From assembly GCA_028286905.1 (NCBI GenBank), contig JAQBQP010000002.1, positions 56,971-120,970 of the forward strand: 64,000 nucleotides of DNA, given 5' to 3'. Below, piece after piece: positions 1 to 63,448 of the stretch (the stretch's first letter is position 1; each line of letters opens with the position of its first letter). Both the position numbers and the translations under genes were made by a program. Below the pieces are notes generated by a model that did no database searches, had not been told where the DNA came from, and saw nothing but the letters and a program-made list of their open reading frames with translations. The DNA is from Candidatus Doudnabacteria bacterium. Its GTDB lineage: Bacteria; Patescibacteriota; Doudnabacteria; UBA920; VMFF01.

Positions 1-465
<465 letters not shown>

Positions 466-648
466 AGCTAAATTAACTAGTAATTTGTGATTAAATTAGA
501 TTAGGTCTGCCCTTCCCCCATATCAATTATGTGGAAGGACTGACCTGATCCATATCTCTTATAATACGAAACCGGTCTGCCACAGACCAACCAATAACAG
601 AGCACTTTAAGTGCCCTCTGTATTCGCGGGGAAACCTCATCTCGAATA

Positions 649-762
649 CAGGTGGCATTTACGATGTGGTCCGACCTGATCCCTTTCCGAACTCAGCAGT
701 CAAACGCATTTGTGCCGATGATAGCCTGGCTTATGTCAGTGCAAAAGTAGGTAGCTGCCGAC
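649..762 (+). rRNA. rrf: 5S rRNA
   Basis: GATGTGGTCCGACCTGATCCCTTTCCGAACTCAGCAGTCAAACGC...GCCGATGATAGCCTGG...GTAGGTAGCTGCC aligns to the canonical 5S; helix I GGUGGC/GCUGCC; boundaries approximate. Confidence 0.7.
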
Positions 763-802
763 TAAGTTAGCCGAAGCCGAAAGGCGTAGGCAAGCTCAAA
801 AA

Positions 803-2422: not shown

Positions 2423-2512
2423 GGAAGAGTCGCATAGTGGTCTAGTGCACGCGCTTGGAAAGCGCGCAAGGGGTCAAACCCTTCAGGAGTTCGAATCTCC
2501 TCTCTTCCGCCA
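2423..2512 (+). tRNA. tRNA-Ser (anticodon GGA), long variable arm, encoded CCA
   Basis: Acceptor GGAAGAG/CTCTTCC, anticodon stem CGCGC/GCGCG with loop TTGGAAA, long variable arm CAAGGGGTCAAACCCTTC, T-arm AGGAG-TTCGAAT-CTCCT, G73, CCA. Confidence 0.9.
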
Positions 2513-13100: not shown

Positions 13101-13940
13101 ATGAAAAAAATTGGTTTAAAATTTTTGCTAGCATTTAGCACCATTGTGGTTGGTGTTTTTGCACTGATGCCGGTTGCTAATGCACATGTTTTAAAAAGCG
13201 ATGGGGAGGTTGGCGCCGTGCTGCATATCGATCCCGACGACGATCCGATTGCAAATGAACCAGCAGCTTTTTATTTTGCAATTAAAGACACTTCGGGTAA
13301 ATTTGACCCAAGCAAATGCGACTGCCACTTTATTGTTACAAAAGATCAGCAAACCGTTTTTGATAAGCCGATTAGTATCATAAAACAATCAGGCGAATGG
13401 GATGGCATAATTGGTTATACCTTCACCGATCGGGCGATCTACTCGGTTCTTTTAAAAGGTACTCCGAAAACAACGAATGCTTTTCAACCGTTTAACTTAG
13501 ATTATGATATTCGAGTTTCGCGCACTGCTAACGCGACAGCTCCTGGAACTTCAAATAGCTCTTCCACACAAATTCATTTGGTGCATTTCGTTTTATTCGG
13601 CATTGCCTTTATTGCAATTTTTTATATTATTTGGGATGAGAAAAGAAAAGGACGCAAGACCTCAAAAAGGCCTGATCAAATTATTAAAAGCCTTATAATA
13701 GTATTAGCGCTAAGTTCTTTTGTCTTTCATTCCTCAGGTTTGCATTGCTCTGCCAGTCAAAATTCTAGCCAACTTCCTTGCTGTGCAGTAGCGCCAACAG
13801 GAATTATTGTTAAAAGCGTTACGGTTGAACCGGTCGAAATAGTTTGGCGTAGTGAGTTAGTACAATCAAATTTTGAATCAATTCAAGTTGATAATAAGGT
13901 TAGCAACAAGTCGCCGCCACTTCAGACGCAAGTATTCTAA
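13101..13940 (+). CDS. Secreted/membrane protein whose mature N-terminus begins with His (CopC-like?), with C-terminal TM and Cys-rich tail
   Basis: Signal peptide ...VANA|HVLKSDGEV; beta-rich domain; TM segment; CC/C..C tail. Confidence 0.45.
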   Translation: MKKIGLKFLLAFSTIVVGVFALMPVANAHVLKSDGEVGAVLHIDPDDDPIANEPAAFYFAIKDTSGKFDPSKCDCHFIVTKDQQTVFDKPISIIKQSGEWDGIIGYTFTDRAIYSVLLKGTPKTTNAFQPFNLDYDIRVSRTANATAPGTSNSSSTQIHLVHFVLFGIAFIAIFYIIWDEKRKGRKTSKRPDQIIKSLIIVLALSSFVFHSSGLHCSASQNSSQLPCCAVAPTGIIVKSVTVEPVEIVWRSELVQSNFESIQVDNKVSNKSPPLQTQVF

Positions 13941-13965
13941 AGCTAACTTATTATTATATTCAAAT

Positions 13966-14604
13966 ATGAAAAAAACTATTTTCGCAGCTCTTTTAATAGC
14001 TGTCTCTTCTCTTGGCGGAATTAAATTCGCGTCTGCCCATGCGGTGGTTTCTCCCAATCAAGCGAATATTGGCGAGTTTACTAATTTCAGTCTGGGAGTG
14101 CCAAGTGAAAGGGCTTCAGCTACAGTTTCGGTACGTTTGCTAATGCCCGCTGGTTTGAATTACGTAACTCCTTTTGTTAAGCCCGGGTGGAAGATTGAAG
14201 TAAAGAAAAATGGCGATCAAGTTCAGGAAATAGATTGGACGGGTGGGGCAATACCTACAGAAGAAAAAGATCAATTTATGTTCAGCGCTCAAATACCAAC
14301 TACCGCCGGAACTTTGCAATGGAAAGTTTACCAAACCTACCAAGATGGTACGGTGATCTCATGGGACCAAGACCCAAGCGCTGCTCAGTCTAAGGATGCT
14401 TCTGGAAAAACGGATTTCTCTAAAGTCGGACCTTATTCTAAAACTGAAATCGTAAATGATTTAGCAAATGGTTCTATCGCTCCTGGCGCTGCCACGAGCT
14501 CCGATACTAGCGCAGCTAGCTTAAAAAAAGCGAATTTTGCTGCAACGATTAGTATCGTAGCATTAGTATTTGCGATTTGGGCCTTACGAAAGAAGAACGT
14601 TTAA
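13966..14604 (+). CDS. YcnI-like (DUF1775) copper-binding surface protein with C-terminal TM anchor
   Basis: Signal peptide ...ASA|HAVVSPNQANIGEF is typical of the DUF1775 N-terminus; C-terminal hydrophobic anchor; start set at the internal Met (ATG 13966). Confidence 0.5.
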   Translation: MKKTIFAALLIAVSSLGGIKFASAHAVVSPNQANIGEFTNFSLGVPSERASATVSVRLLMPAGLNYVTPFVKPGWKIEVKKNGDQVQEIDWTGGAIPTEEKDQFMFSAQIPTTAGTLQWKVYQTYQDGTVISWDQDPSAAQSKDASGKTDFSKVGPYSKTEIVNDLANGSIAPGAATSSDTSAASLKKANFAATISIVALVFAIWALRKKNV

Positions 14605-17236: not shown

Positions 17237-17836
17237 TTAATTTGTTTTTACAAGCGAAGCATAAACCACTAAATTTTGTGAATAATGCTTTTCAAGTATA
17301 TTGTATTTTCCGGCACAGGTAATTAAACGAAGTCCAGGATAATTTACATTTCCATAAACTTTATCGCTGGGAAAACTATCTTGTGAAAACACTTCTAGCG
17401 AGTCCACTTTGAATATTGCCTTACTGCCATCTTCGCGAGTAATTTCGATGTGGTCATTTGCTTTAATATCTTTTAACTTGTAGAACACCGCTGCAGATAT
17501 TGCCGAATCTAAGTGCCCAACCATTACAGCAGGTCCTACTTCTCCAGGAGTTGGGGACCGATCATACCAACCCACATCGCTGTAAGTTTTTGGGACTTCC
17601 AGACTGTTGTCTTTGTTTAGGTCGACGTTTATTACTGGAGCATCTACTTTAATAGATGATATTTTAATTTGTTTCGGTTTGGAGGCAGGAAGAGAATAAA
17701 CTGTTTGAGCCGTTATTGCAGCAGGAATATTTTCAAAAGGCGTTACGGGTTCTTGACGCCAAAGTTGGCGGAATGTAATTATTCCGCCAACGATCAGTGC
17801 TAATGCAGCCAAGGTTAATCCAATTTTTGCTTTCAT
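17237..17836 (-). CDS. Sortase (transpeptidase)
   Basis: N-terminal TM anchor, His in VMVGHLD, catalytic Cys in LRLITCAGKY (TLxTC-type), conserved Arg downstream. Confidence 0.75.
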   Translation of the reverse strand: MKAKIGLTLAALALIVGGIITFRQLWRQEPVTPFENIPAAITAQTVYSLPASKPKQIKISSIKVDAPVINVDLNKDNSLEVPKTYSDVGWYDRSPTPGEVGPAVMVGHLDSAISAAVFYKLKDIKANDHIEITREDGSKAIFKVDSLEVFSQDSFPSDKVYGNVNYPGLRLITCAGKYNILEKHYSQNLVVYASLVKTN

Positions 17837-17838
17837 TT

Positions 17839-18960
17839 TTAATTAAGGTTGTTTTGTCGAGCTTCTTTAGTTACAGATAGTAAGCCGATTGCCAACGCAC
17901 CAGTGAGTAAGAAAAATAATCCAATTGAGCTAAGATCTGCGGTGCCGCCATTTCCAGCATTTACTCCTCCGACTGGAGTCGTTGTCACGCCCGCGATGCT
18001 ACCAGCGGGTAAGCTAGTAGGGTCTGTGGTTGCAGCCGCTGAATTTAAAGTTGCATTGGTGGTGGAAGATCCGCCGTTGTTATTGCAAGTTGCGATGATG
18101 TTTGCAGATCCTGCGGTTAGTGAAGATGGTAGAGTGAAGTTTGAGGAATAAGCGCCGTTGCTAGCACTAGTCGCGGAACCAAGGTTTGTTGTTATGCCGT
18201 TTTGATTAACGGTGAAACTCACGCTGCTGCTTGCAGTGGGACAGACTCCAGAGATATTAACTGCGCCATTAAGAGTTGGGTTTGTTGGAGACAAGGCTAG
18301 ATTTATTAAAGAGGGATCACCGATTACTGCAAGAGTGCTAACAGTTTGTCCGTTTCCACAGTTTGCAGTCAAGGTTGCTAAACCTGCAGGGGTATTTGCG
18401 GGCAACAAAATGTTAGAAGTAAAGGCAGCGTTCGCTCCATTTGCCACAGCTGTTGCTGGTAAGGAAGTGATTGTTCCGCTTCTGTTTAGTGTAAAAGTTA
18501 CGGTATTACCGTTGTTACTAGCACCGCAAATGCCGCTGGCGGCAACTGTACCATTTAGAGCTGCTAGAGGGGTATTAAAAGTAATCATATCGGTGGATGG
18601 CGCCAAGACGTTTATCGCAGATGAAAACGTTGAGCCATTTGGACAGGTGGCTACTAATGTTGTAGGGCCAGTAGCGTATGAATTTGGAATGCTTAAATTA
18701 GTGCTAAAAGTATTATTGGAATTTGCGGTACTAGCATTTGTGCTCAACGGTGTTGAAACAGAATTGCTATTCAGCAAAGAAAAAGTAACGTTTCCTGCTG
18801 TTGAGCATGAGCCAGATAGGCCAAAAGTACCGTTTCCTTGAACGGGAGTGCCAGTTAAGGTTAAGTCTCCAACAGCTGCATGTGTTGCCGGAGCGATAAA
18901 AATTACCATCGCAATTGCCAATAATCCGGCCAGGACTTTGGAATGAATTTTTTTAGACAT
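17839..18960 (-). CDS. Secreted Thr/Ser/Asn/Gly-rich surface protein with four or more Cys-containing tandem repeat modules and C-terminal TM plus charged tail (putative sortase substrate)
   Basis: Signal peptide; repeats such as GTPVQGNGTFGLSGSCSTAGNVTFSL / ALNGTVAASGICGASNNGNTVTFTL / LNGAVNISGVCPTASSSVSFTV; C-terminus ...LFFLLTGALAIGLLSVTKEARQNNLN. Confidence 0.65.
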   Translation of the reverse strand: MSKKIHSKVLAGLLAIAMVIFIAPATHAAVGDLTLTGTPVQGNGTFGLSGSCSTAGNVTFSLLNSNSVSTPLSTNASTANSNNTFSTNLSIPNSYATGPTTLVATCPNGSTFSSAINVLAPSTDMITFNTPLAALNGTVAASGICGASNNGNTVTFTLNRSGTITSLPATAVANGANAAFTSNILLPANTPAGLATLTANCGNGQTVSTLAVIGDPSLINLALSPTNPTLNGAVNISGVCPTASSSVSFTVNQNGITTNLGSATSASNGAYSSNFTLPSSLTAGSANIIATCNNNGGSSTTNATLNSAAATTDPTSLPAGSIAGVTTTPVGGVNAGNGGTADLSSIGLFFLLTGALAIGLLSVTKEARQNNLN

Positions 18961-19052: not shown

Positions 19053-19721
19053 TTAGTCGAATTGACTGATTTTTGTTAAAAGCATTATGCCATTGTCTTT
19101 ATCTAGTTTTTCAAAGCTAAATTGCTGGTTTGTTTCGATTTTCTCAAAAAAATTCTTTAATAAATTCGCATGGGTGTTAATATTATCAATCACAATAACC
19201 CCGCCTGATTTTAAAAGCGGGTAGAGTAGATCTAAATATTCAACGTAATCCCTTTTAAATGCGTCCAAAAAAACGAAATCAATTTGCTTGGATTCATTGA
19301 AAGATAAGCTGTTCCATTCTTGTAAAACAACTTTTGCATCGTAATCTAATAAGGTCACAAAATTTTCTACCGCAGCGCTTTTGAAATTAATTTTTGCCAT
19401 TTCAATCCGAGCGGTATTTATTTCTGTGGCAAAAATTTTTGCATCAAATTGTTCCGCCGCTAACGCCATCCATAAAGTTGAATAGCCAACTGAACTGCCC
19501 ACTTCAAATATCGTTTTAGGCTTAAGTTCTAAAATGAGTTCAGATAAAAATTTTCCAGTTGAGCGAGGGATTGAAGCAAACTTAGTTTTTAAACCCCAGT
19601 CATGGCTAATGTTAGCCGTCTCCCAATCTTCGTTTTGTTGCCAAACCCTTTCGGTTTTTTCAATTTCTTCAATGGTTTTTAAAATCTTATCTTTCACCGA
19701 TTTGTTGTCTCCACATCGCAT
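19053..19721 (-). CDS. Class I SAM-dependent O-methyltransferase (caffeoyl-CoA OMT-like, family 3)
   Basis: VGSSVGYSTLWMA, FATEIN, VFLDAFKRDY motifs. Confidence 0.7.
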   Translation of the reverse strand: MRCGDNKSVKDKILKTIEEIEKTERVWQQNEDWETANISHDWGLKTKFASIPRSTGKFLSELILELKPKTIFEVGSSVGYSTLWMALAAEQFDAKIFATEINTARIEMAKINFKSAAVENFVTLLDYDAKVVLQEWNSLSFNESKQIDFVFLDAFKRDYVEYLDLLYPLLKSGGVIVIDNINTHANLLKNFFEKIETNQQFSFEKLDKDNGIMLLTKISQFD

Positions 19722-21499: not shown

Positions 21500-21904
21500 A
21501 TGGAAAAGACCAAACTCAAAGAATCTCCGGTTATCACGGTAAAGCGTTCTAAAACCGGTTTAGGAATTTATACTAAAAGCGAAATTAACAAAGGTGATTT
21601 TGTAATTGAATATATCGGCGAGAGAATATCTAATGCCGAAGCGGACAAGCGCTTAGGAATGTATTTATTTGAATTAAATAAACGCGTTACAATTGATGGC
21701 AGCAGTAGAAAGAATATTGCCAGGTATTTAAACCATTCTTGTTTGCCAAATTGTGAAGCATGGATAAAGAAGGGTAAGATTATGATTATTGCCCGAAGAA
21801 AAATAAAAGCAGGAGAAGAGCTGACATATGATTACGGCAAGGAATTTTTTAATGGTTTCATTAAACCAATTGGCTGTAAATGTGTAAAGTGTTCTGCTAA
21901 GTAG
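21500..21904 (+). CDS. SET-domain protein (putative lysine methyltransferase)
   Basis: GLGIYT..., NHSCLPNCEA, ELTYDYG, post-SET Cys cluster CKCVKC. Confidence 0.75.
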   Translation: MEKTKLKESPVITVKRSKTGLGIYTKSEINKGDFVIEYIGERISNAEADKRLGMYLFELNKRVTIDGSSRKNIARYLNHSCLPNCEAWIKKGKIMIIARRKIKAGEELTYDYGKEFFNGFIKPIGCKCVKCSAK

Positions 21905-62796: not shown

Positions 62797-63336
62797 CACG
62801 TATCCCTAAATTTCTCTAAGGGGTGGACTATATCATCATCCCACTTTTACTGGGATGCGAGGCGCTTCGGCCGATCTTCATCGGACTACTCCTTGCGGAT
62901 AGTCTCTGAACCTTCCCCAATTATAAGTCGGGGCTTGGCTGCTGATTGCCCCGAAGGGTTTCCAGCAATTCACCTCGTTTTTCCATCCTCAATTACTTGA
63001 AGAGGCTGCAATTAGACCGGCATGTATTTCTTTGTAACAGTTTGAGCAAATTAGAACGCATTTTTCTAACTCTTTTCGTGTTCTTTCCCACGATCGAGTC
63101 AGTCCACTAAGCGCAATTCCAAATTCTTTGGTTTTACGATCCAAGTGGTGAAATTCTAAAGCTGCTAGACATCTATCGTAGCACAGAGCTTGCACTTGCC
63201 GCCTTTTAAAGCGACGGCCATGGCTTTGATTTTCTTACGTCTCTTATCTACTGCCAGTTTGATATACTCTTTTCGGTCTGAATATTTTCTTTGTTCTTTC
63301 ATACTTTGATAGTATCAAAGAATTAGATGGTATTAC
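62797..63336 (-). mobile_element. Group I intron (self-splicing-type) inserted in the tRNA anticodon loop
   Basis: P7 strands ...GGTTCAGAGACTA... and ...TATAGTCCACC...; P9-like hairpin CCCTTAGAGAAATTTAGGG followed by ATACG (omega-G) directly before the 3' exon; internal HNH ORF; boundaries +/- 2 nt. Confidence 0.7.
62989..63301 (-). pseudogene. Intron-encoded HNH homing endonuclease, split by a frameshift (ATG at 63301; C-terminal part in another frame ending 62989)
   Basis: Frame 1: MKEQRKYSDRKEYIKLAVDKRRKKIKAMAVALKGGKCKLCATIDV*; frame +2 continues ...ALCYDRCLAALEFHHLDRKTKEFG...CVLICSNCYKEIH with HNH motifs (HH..D, CxxC...H). Confidence 0.6.
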
Positions 63337-63419
63337 AGTCGATTGCTCTACCACTGAGCTACTCCCGAATATTCTGTTTTGAACCATAGAATCGGCCTAT
63401 TTGGCCGAAACTACTCGAA

Positions 63420-63448
63420 TATTATTGCATTTCTTTTTGCTTAAGTCA
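63420..63448 (-). promoter_or_regulatory. Candidate sigma70 promoter for the intron-containing tRNA (-35 TTGACT, 17-nt spacer, -10 AATAAT)
   Basis: Read on the minus strand about 50 nt upstream of the tRNA 5' end. Confidence 0.3.

Follow-up and report, generated by a model that had tools for sequence, protein, structure and literature searches.

Within 64,000 nucleotides (nt) of Candidatus Doudnabacteria DNA (contig JAQBQP010000002.1 of assembly GCA_028286905.1; the whole of this stretch is referred to here as the window) lie two adjoining genes that probably encode a dedicated class F sortase and the protein which it would anchor covalently at the cell surface. The surface protein, which is probably the sortase's single substrate, ends in a Gly-rich motif, a hydrophobic segment and a charged tail, and tails of this kind are found beside class F sortase genes in two bacterial phyla. 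The locus belongs, as an ordinary case, to a class F sortase/substrate system that is widespread and catalogued in databases, and it is not a new kind of system, since the signal is already modelled in NCBIfam as GVDTG-CTERM; judged by its sequence, the window protein is a divergent, sub-threshold Patescibacteria example of that signal. The pair had been singled out in a sequence-only reading of the window, and its claims are taken up below together with the results that bear on them. The two genes are:

17839..18960, minus strand: gene for a 373-amino-acid (aa) secreted surface protein, the putative sortase substrate (open reading frame (ORF), homologs, and an AlphaFold2 model with a mean predicted local distance difference test (pLDDT) score of 73.7)
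17237..17836, minus strand: gene for a 199-aa class F sortase (NCBIfam, Pfam, AlphaFold2 and Foldseek)

The sequence-only reading placed a sortase directly downstream of a 373-aa secreted protein, and this is indeed the arrangement, with both ORFs on the minus strand and only 2 nt between the TAA stop of the substrate gene and the ATG of the sortase gene. Because of this short gap, the two genes are likely to be co-transcribed and translationally coupled. A purine-rich AAAGGA lies 5 nt ahead of the substrate-gene ATG, and the order of substrate first and sortase directly after it was found in all three of the homolog contexts that were read.

The sortase scores 187.6 bits against the NCBIfam model class_F_sortase (NF033748), for which the cutoff is 166, and no more than 24.6 bits against every other NCBIfam sortase class (17.7 for class E and 16.3 for class C), with 86 bits against the Pfam Sortase model. 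By these profile scores it is assigned to class F and not to the housekeeping class A, so that of the 'housekeeping-type sortase' proposed at first only the second word stands. The AlphaFold2 model, built with 32 homologs, has a mean pLDDT of 91 and is made up of an N-terminal helix (residues 3–26), a linker and a β-barrel (residues 54–195), and no lid segment can be made out between anchor and barrel. When this model was compared with the PDB using Foldseek, the best 50 matches were all sortases of classes A, C, D and E, none of them more than 24% identical, and none of these 50 carried a class F label. The features of the enzyme that matter here are:

17759..17830, minus strand: N-terminal membrane anchor, aa 3–26 (model helix; hydrophobic sequence AKIGLTLAALALIVGGIITF)
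17513..17515, minus strand: predicted codon of the catalytic His108 (invariant; aligns with SrtA His120)
17327..17329, minus strand: codon of Arg170, four residues before Cys174 and on the same strand (conservation)
17315..17317, minus strand: predicted codon of the catalytic Cys174, within LRLITC (invariant; aligns with SrtA Cys184)
17273..17275, minus strand: codon of Asn188, in the column of the canonical sortase Arg (aligns with SrtA Arg197)

The LRLITCAG stretch from which the sortase was first recognised is present as residues 169–176, and neither His108 nor Cys174 varies when 22, 32 or 65 sortase relatives are aligned. Profile alignment (hhalign) to what we take to be the Staphylococcus aureus SrtA sequence pairs His108 with His120, Cys174 with Cys184 and Asn188 with Arg197 at a probability of only 65%, and for these two reasons its placement of Asn188 in the Arg column is a lead. 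This lead is backed by the family itself, as the column holds Arg or Lys in more distant homologs (22-sequence alignment) and Asn in 61 of the 65 relatives. PDB sequence searches directed at the same column gave alignments that ended before the last strand, and the C-terminal 49 aa used as a query found no useful match. The Cys/His/Arg triad expected of a sortase is thus present in its Cys and His, with Asn188 where the Arg would be. In class F sortases a conserved Asn is reported to replace the catalytic Arg (PMC8703055; PMC6998099), and on that account the substitution is a trait of the class and not the sign of a dead or decayed enzyme. Arg170 is at least 90% conserved in the similarity-based alignments of 22 and 32 sequences; it is also present in 64 of the 65 relatives, a set partly selected with the LRLITC pattern, so that this conservation is partly built in.

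The C-terminus of the surface protein has the layout of a cell-wall sorting signal, and its parts are:

17944..17976, minus strand: sorting motif P329-V-G-G-V-N-A-G-N-G-G339 (invariant columns; consensus of 42 tails; sub-threshold GVDTG_CTERM match)
17872..17925, minus strand: C-terminal hydrophobic membrane segment, aa 346–363, IGLFFLLTGALAIGLLSV (hydropathy scan; model helix 344–370)
17842..17871, minus strand: charged cytoplasmic tail, aa 364–373, TKEARQNNLN (translation; basic tail in all homologs)

As first described, a hydrophobic segment (I346–V363) is followed by a charged tail, TKEARQNNLN, at the extreme C-terminus, and the motif at aa 329–339 precedes the hydrophobic segment by a spacer of six residues. 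The motif emerged when the C-termini of homologs were aligned: P329, G331, G332, V333, A335 and G336 are invariant in the window protein and ten homologs, whilst the residues flanking them vary. The pentapeptides LSSIG and TADLS, named earlier as the closest candidates, lie in the variable spacer, where their positions shift among homologs, and have to give way to the conserved PVGGVNAG (aa 329–336). The observation that the protein has no LPXTG at its C-terminus is correct, and it has no match to TIGR01167 (LPXTG_anchor). Its sole match to L[PA]xT[GANS] is LPATA at residue 167, which was rejected as a signal; it sits inside the folded domain 2, with some 180 residues between it and the membrane segment, and homologs do not conserve it.

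The only sorting-domain model to match the window protein is GVDTG_CTERM (NF058571, GVDTG-CTERM in NCBIfam release 20.0, June 2026), which describes the same tripartite tail of a Gly-rich motif, a membrane segment and basic residues. The match spans aa 328–360 and reaches 19.4 bits with the full protein and 22.8 bits with its 74-aa tail, below the cutoff of 29, and the literal G-V-D-T-G core is replaced by G-V-N-A-G, with Ala and not Thr before the invariant Gly. No mention of the GVDTG signal was found in the searchable literature. A candidate substrate peptide for the sortase is TTPVGGVNAGNGGTAD. The motif can be brought into register with L-P-X-T-G through a G-A-P-N-T-G variant that is common in other Patescibacteria, and on this register, by analogy with every characterised sortase, the scissile bond of the window protein would lie between Ala335 and Gly336.

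The strongest evidence that the signal and the sortase belong together comes from other genomes. Using an alignment of the 11 closer sortases, 65 loci with sortase relatives were found in species-representative genomes, and 67 were analysed when the homologous loci L001 and L002 are counted; they were collected by sequence patterns from this sortase clade and so do not sample class F at random. The loci come from Patescibacteria (Doudnabacteria, Saccharibacteria, Wolfebacteria, Nomurabacteria, Kaiserbacteria and Paceibacteria) and from Actinomycetota (Streptomyces, Embleya, Actinacidiphila, Kitasatospora, Solirubrobacterales and Thermoleophilia). Enough upstream DNA was available at 63 of them, and in 39 of these the adjacent upstream ORF on the same strand ends in G[GAS][VILPA]x[TAG]G followed by a hydrophobic segment and a basic tail; in about 15 others the motif is a looser variant or the substrate stands one or two genes away. 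By comparison, the tail pattern is matched by 10 of the 5962 other six-frame ORFs in the same DNA, three of which are evidently extra substrates. The suggestion that a lineage-specific, non-LPXTG sorting signal accompanies the sortase is therefore borne out, both by the conserved motif and by the pairing in most of the 63 loci.

A consensus of 42 tails, anchored on the Gly that is present in all of them (42/42), reads P (38), x, G (40), [GA] (39), [VP] (35), x, [AT] (38), the invariant G, x, G (38) and G (30), where the residue directly before the invariant Gly is Ala in 29 tails and Thr in nine. GVDTG_CTERM matches 29 of the 42 at E ≤ 0.1, the best at 7e-12. Its cutoff of 29 is passed only by Streptomyces tails of the GGVETG type (45.5 bits); all Patescibacteria tails tested score 14–24 bits and several other actinobacterial tails 21–29. 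The sortases standing beside GAPxTG-type signals are more alike among themselves (55% within the group and 46% between groups), and two residues before the catalytic His they have Leu in 9/9 cases, compared with Val in 31/40 of the others. This sequence covariation of sortase and motif type is only suggestive, because it is confounded with phylogeny.

The tail does not travel with one type of protein. Only eight of 41 sortase-adjacent proteins have the ectodomain of the window protein, for which ten homologs at 31–66% identity were found first and 431 cluster representatives in a wider search. Among 157 ectodomain relatives (the ten first homologs and the best of the 431 representatives) the motif precedes the membrane tail in 57, most of them small proteins, and about 15, mostly large and actinobacterial, have LPxTG or LAxTG at the same place. 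Because so few of the sortase-adjacent proteins share the ectodomain, and because related ectodomains carry LPxTG or LAxTG at that position, sequence comparison identifies the tail as a portable targeting module and not part of one protein family.

Gly-Gly pairs ahead of a membrane segment and a basic tail superficially resemble the GlyGly-CTERM signal, which raises the alternative that the tail is processed by a rhombosortase or by an enzyme of the exosortase/archaeosortase type and that the sortase is unrelated to it. We regard this as highly improbable. Besides GVDTG_CTERM, no sorting model matches more than six of the 42 tails (PVV-CTERM six, LPXTG three and others one or two), and neither GlyGly-CTERM nor PEP-CTERM is among the 16 families listed for these tails at E ≤ 0.1. 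No rhomboid or exosortase gene is present among the annotated genes near the pair, a result that covers this neighbourhood only, and the statistical link described above is to sortase genes.

Several of the loci have features of their own. Two class F sortase genes can lie close together, as at L006 (9346–9972) and as indicated by second matches in L007, L008, L010, L042 and L066; at L006 the substrate is two genes upstream of the matched sortase. In two Solirubrobacterales loci (L044, 3–323, and L053, 8550–9968) the upstream ORF stops after APAGGVDAG[MF]GGSAR with no in-frame membrane segment, which could reflect a frameshift, an assembly error or a natural tail-less variant. Some Streptomyces loci with class F sortases also encode LADTG proteins of the class E type a few kilobases (kb) upstream (L063, 5278–6162 and 7178–8065; L061, 6384–8057; L064, 7102–8019), and there the class F and the LADTG/class E type sorting systems stand side by side.

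The remainder of the surface protein would form the part that is displayed, and is organised as follows:

18874..18960, minus strand: Sec-type signal peptide, aa 1–29, MSKKIHSKVLAGLLAIAMVIFIAPATHAA (by inspection: basic n-region, hydrophobic core and A-x-A-like c-region; model helix 9–22)
18595..18873, minus strand: immunoglobulin (Ig)-like β-sandwich module 1, aa 30–122, with Cys52 and Cys106 (seven strands, pLDDT 82–92; both Cys invariant in 11 sequences)
18310..18594, minus strand: Ig-like β-sandwich module 2, aa 123–217, with Cys145 and Cys201 (homolog alignment, module similarity, AlphaFold2)
18031..18309, minus strand: Ig-like β-sandwich module 3, aa 218–310, with Cys240 and Cys292 (homolog alignment, module similarity, AlphaFold2)
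17977..18030, minus strand: disordered Thr/Pro-rich stalk, aa 311–328 (pLDDT below 50 over residues 310–343)

The signal peptide, recognised by inspection, agrees with the earlier description of a secreted protein. That description also gave the protein about five modules of some 45 aa, rich in Thr, Ser, Asn and Gly and with one Cys each; the composition was read correctly (T 51, S 43, N 39, A 38 and G 29 over aa 30–328, with one Arg, four Asp, no Lys and no Glu), and the architecture is instead one of three modules of about 93 aa with two Cys each. Pairwise alignments of the three modules give z = 8.7–9.6, and none of 1000 shuffles reaches the observed score; a self-BLAST of the protein found no internal repeats, which the shuffle test did detect. 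The modelled structure of these repeats (pLDDT 80–92 within domains) consists of three seven-stranded β-sandwiches, a disordered region at 310–343 and a C-terminal helix at 344–370. The six Cys residues (52, 106, 145, 201, 240 and 292) occupy positions that are invariant or nearly so across 11 homologs, and in the model they pair up at the ends of the second and sixth strands of each module, as would fit an intradomain disulfide of the Ig-like type. On one homolog-bearing contig (P0004, JGI 3300071358), DsbB and DsbA genes are found about 3–4 kb upstream of the substrate gene, and their products would fit disulfide formation in domains with such Cys pairs.

Foldseek relates the model to generic tandem Ig-like arrays, including an adhesion-protein extender (6xi3), a Haloferax S-layer protein (7ptp), macroglobulin MG domains and titin, and a weak Pfam MG2 match, at 20.7 bits below the cutoff, covers aa 251–300 of module 3. 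The modelled fold thus suggests a tandem Ig-like surface stalk or coat and does not by itself point to a ligand. N-x-S/T sequons are not enriched (11 observed and 11.5 expected). The same β-sandwich module of about 93 aa recurs in up to 17 copies in proteins of 1000–3262 aa (P0068, P0072, P0075, P0081, P0084 and others), many of which end in LPxTG- or LAxTG-type signals.

A dedicated sortase next to an Ig-like, Cys-containing surface protein also brings to mind a pilin, which the sortase would polymerise into a covalent fibre for host attachment in the manner of class C enzymes, and such enzymes are among the closest PDB folds to the sortase model. The pilin-like reading, which had been raised at the outset, is nevertheless disfavoured, and we give it very little weight, because the mature ectodomain (aa 30–328) has no lysine to serve as the nucleophile of a pilin motif, only one substrate gene is present, and the sortase belongs to class F. 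Neither tip nor base pilins accompany the substrate gene in the window or in three homolog contexts, the score of the sortase for class F is more than tenfold that for class C, and the lid between membrane anchor and barrel is not evident in its model.

Set beside the LPXTG/class A system of S. aureus SrtA, the proposed class F substrate has the same layout of signal peptide, ectodomain, short motif, hydrophobic segment and charged tail, the sortase has the same fold with aligned His and Cys, and [GA]-[VP]-x-[AT]-G maps in register onto L-P-x-T-G. The differences are that the class F-linked motif is Gly-rich and extended, with P-x-G before and x-G-G after this core, and usually has Ala at P1, that Asn188 replaces Arg197, and that the window sortase is dedicated to an adjacent gene, whereas SrtA serves many dispersed substrates. 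The LAXTG/class E system of Actinomycetota likewise relies on a variant pentapeptide read by a lineage-specific sortase class; class E, however, keeps the catalytic Arg and has Leu at the first motif position, and the class E score of the window sortase is low, as given above.

For class F itself, papers from 2020 to 2026 describe sortases without assigned function, substrates or structure. The SrtF of Propionibacterium (Cutibacterium) acnes, which belongs to the same class as the window sortase according to the literature (PMC8225981; PMC13251363) and is compared here by description only, is reported to recognise LPXTG as the sole housekeeping sortase of that species (PMC8225981). A closer parallel, again likened through the published description and from a different organism, is found in the srtF1/AMIS_11010 and srtF4/AMIS_36440 pairs of Actinoplanes missouriensis. 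There the protein encoded beside the sortase gene has a signal peptide, together with a C-terminal membrane segment and basic tail, and lacks LPXTG, which is the arrangement of the window pair. These neighbours were suggested as possible SrtF substrates, and the 2026 study set the srtF-adjacent genes aside as no pentapeptide was seen in them (PMC13251363).

It could be asked whether the C-terminal segment of the window protein is a mere type I membrane anchor and the Gly-rich stretch a flexible hinge, the sortase acting elsewhere or being simply a syntenic neighbour. A surface protein that lacks LPXTG, and a motif that is of low complexity, rich in Gly and modelled as disordered, are all in keeping with this explanation, as are the lack of a phenotype when all four class F sortases of Actinoplanes were deleted (PMC13251363) and the use of LPXTG by the sole class F sortase so far characterised (PMC8225981). 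A hinge, however, would not fix the spacing of P, G, G, V, A and G from the membrane across unrelated ectodomains, nor would it track class F genes in two phyla (at least 39 of 63 loci, set against 10 of 5962 background ORFs), and the 64-kb window holds no alternative candidate substrate on which the sortase might act. We therefore judge a plain membrane anchor to be unlikely, and a class F sortase with its dedicated substrate to be the probable nature of the pair.

Certain points weigh against this preferred interpretation of a dedicated sortase and substrate. To our knowledge no characterised sortase signal has Ala at P1, as is presumed here, the window sortase lacks the canonical catalytic Arg, and the GVDTG_CTERM score of the window protein (19.4 or 22.8 bits against 29) is below the cutoff. 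The comparative loci were drawn from the clade of this sortase, as noted above, and the search for other candidate substrates, which found none, extended over the 64-kb window as the part of this genome covered. Searchable literature yielded no biochemical evidence for a class F sortase acting on this signal; to this are to be added the LPXTG specificity of the only characterised class F enzyme and the silent Actinoplanes deletions.

In the mechanism that we propose for the pair, the surface protein would be exported via Sec by its N-terminal signal peptide and would be held in the membrane by the C-terminal hydrophobic segment and charged tail, whereby P-V-G-G-V-N-A-G-N-G-G would be presented just outside the membrane on the disordered stalk. 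The membrane-anchored sortase, with His108, Cys174 and Asn188 at its active site, would recognise the motif and cut it between Ala335 and Gly336, following the register of LPXTG, to give a thioacyl intermediate on Cys174. From there the three-domain Ig-like ectodomain would be passed to an amine of a cell-wall precursor, the presumed acceptor, and so be fixed covalently at the surface, where it may serve as a stalk, an adhesin or a coat.

The pair lies amongst ordinary chromosomal genes, encoding TruB, a major facilitator superfamily transporter, an ATP-binding cassette transporter, an O-methyltransferase, a SET-domain protein and a flavin adenine dinucleotide oxidoreductase, and the same gene set flanks the homologous locus L001; for these reasons the locus is a conserved chromosomal region and not an island. 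The neighbouring features are:

19053–19721, minus strand: O-methyltransferase gene (Methyltransf_3, 81 bits), directly upstream of the substrate gene
21500–21904, plus strand: gene for a 134-aa SET-domain protein (Pfam, 89.9 bits)
18212–18841 and 17849–18151, plus strand: ORFs antisense to the substrate gene
13873–14604, plus strand: gene for a DUF1775 (YcnI-like) secreted protein
62804–63110, minus strand: complete group I catalytic intron (Rfam RF00028, 87.7 bits, cutoff 50)
63313–63437: weak Y RNA-like (YrlA) match (27.6 bits, below the cutoff)
1–464, plus strand: 3' end of the 23S ribosomal RNA (rRNA) gene at the start of the window
648–763, plus strand: 5S rRNA gene
2423–2512, plus strand: transfer RNA (tRNA) gene for Ser (GGA)

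The O-methyltransferase was considered as a part of the system and rejected. It occurs in the window, at L001 and L004 and in the P0004 context but at none of the other loci, and this restriction to Doudnabacteria and close relatives marks it as local synteny. SET-domain genes are likewise found a few kb from the pair in L001 and on the P0004 contig, so that synteny is kept among these relatives. The two antisense ORFs have no independent support and are put down to the skewed codon usage of the substrate gene. The DUF1775 protein has a similar C-terminus, with a hydrophobic segment before the basic tail RKKNV, but since the Gly-rich motif is missing it is probably just anchored in the membrane. 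Around the group I intron, neither tRNA nor rRNA genes were detected.

A wider proposal, which we put forward tentatively and regard as rather doubtful at present, is that class F sortases form a mechanistically distinct branch with a His-Cys-Asn site, perhaps aided by Arg170, in which one enzyme serves one substrate by recognising P-x-G-[GA]-[VP]-x-[AT]-G-x-G-G and cutting after Ala. If this were true, the orphan class F sortases of Actinomycetota would gain their missing substrates, and the system would be one of the main routes by which Patescibacteria display proteins covalently at the surface, possibly to make contact with host cells.

The conserved signal offers a concrete and testable substrate motif for class F sortases, and one that reaches well beyond the curated NCBIfam model into Patescibacteria. 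Members of this phylum are ultrasmall and mostly epibiotic bacteria, and surface proteins that they display covalently would be candidates for host contact.

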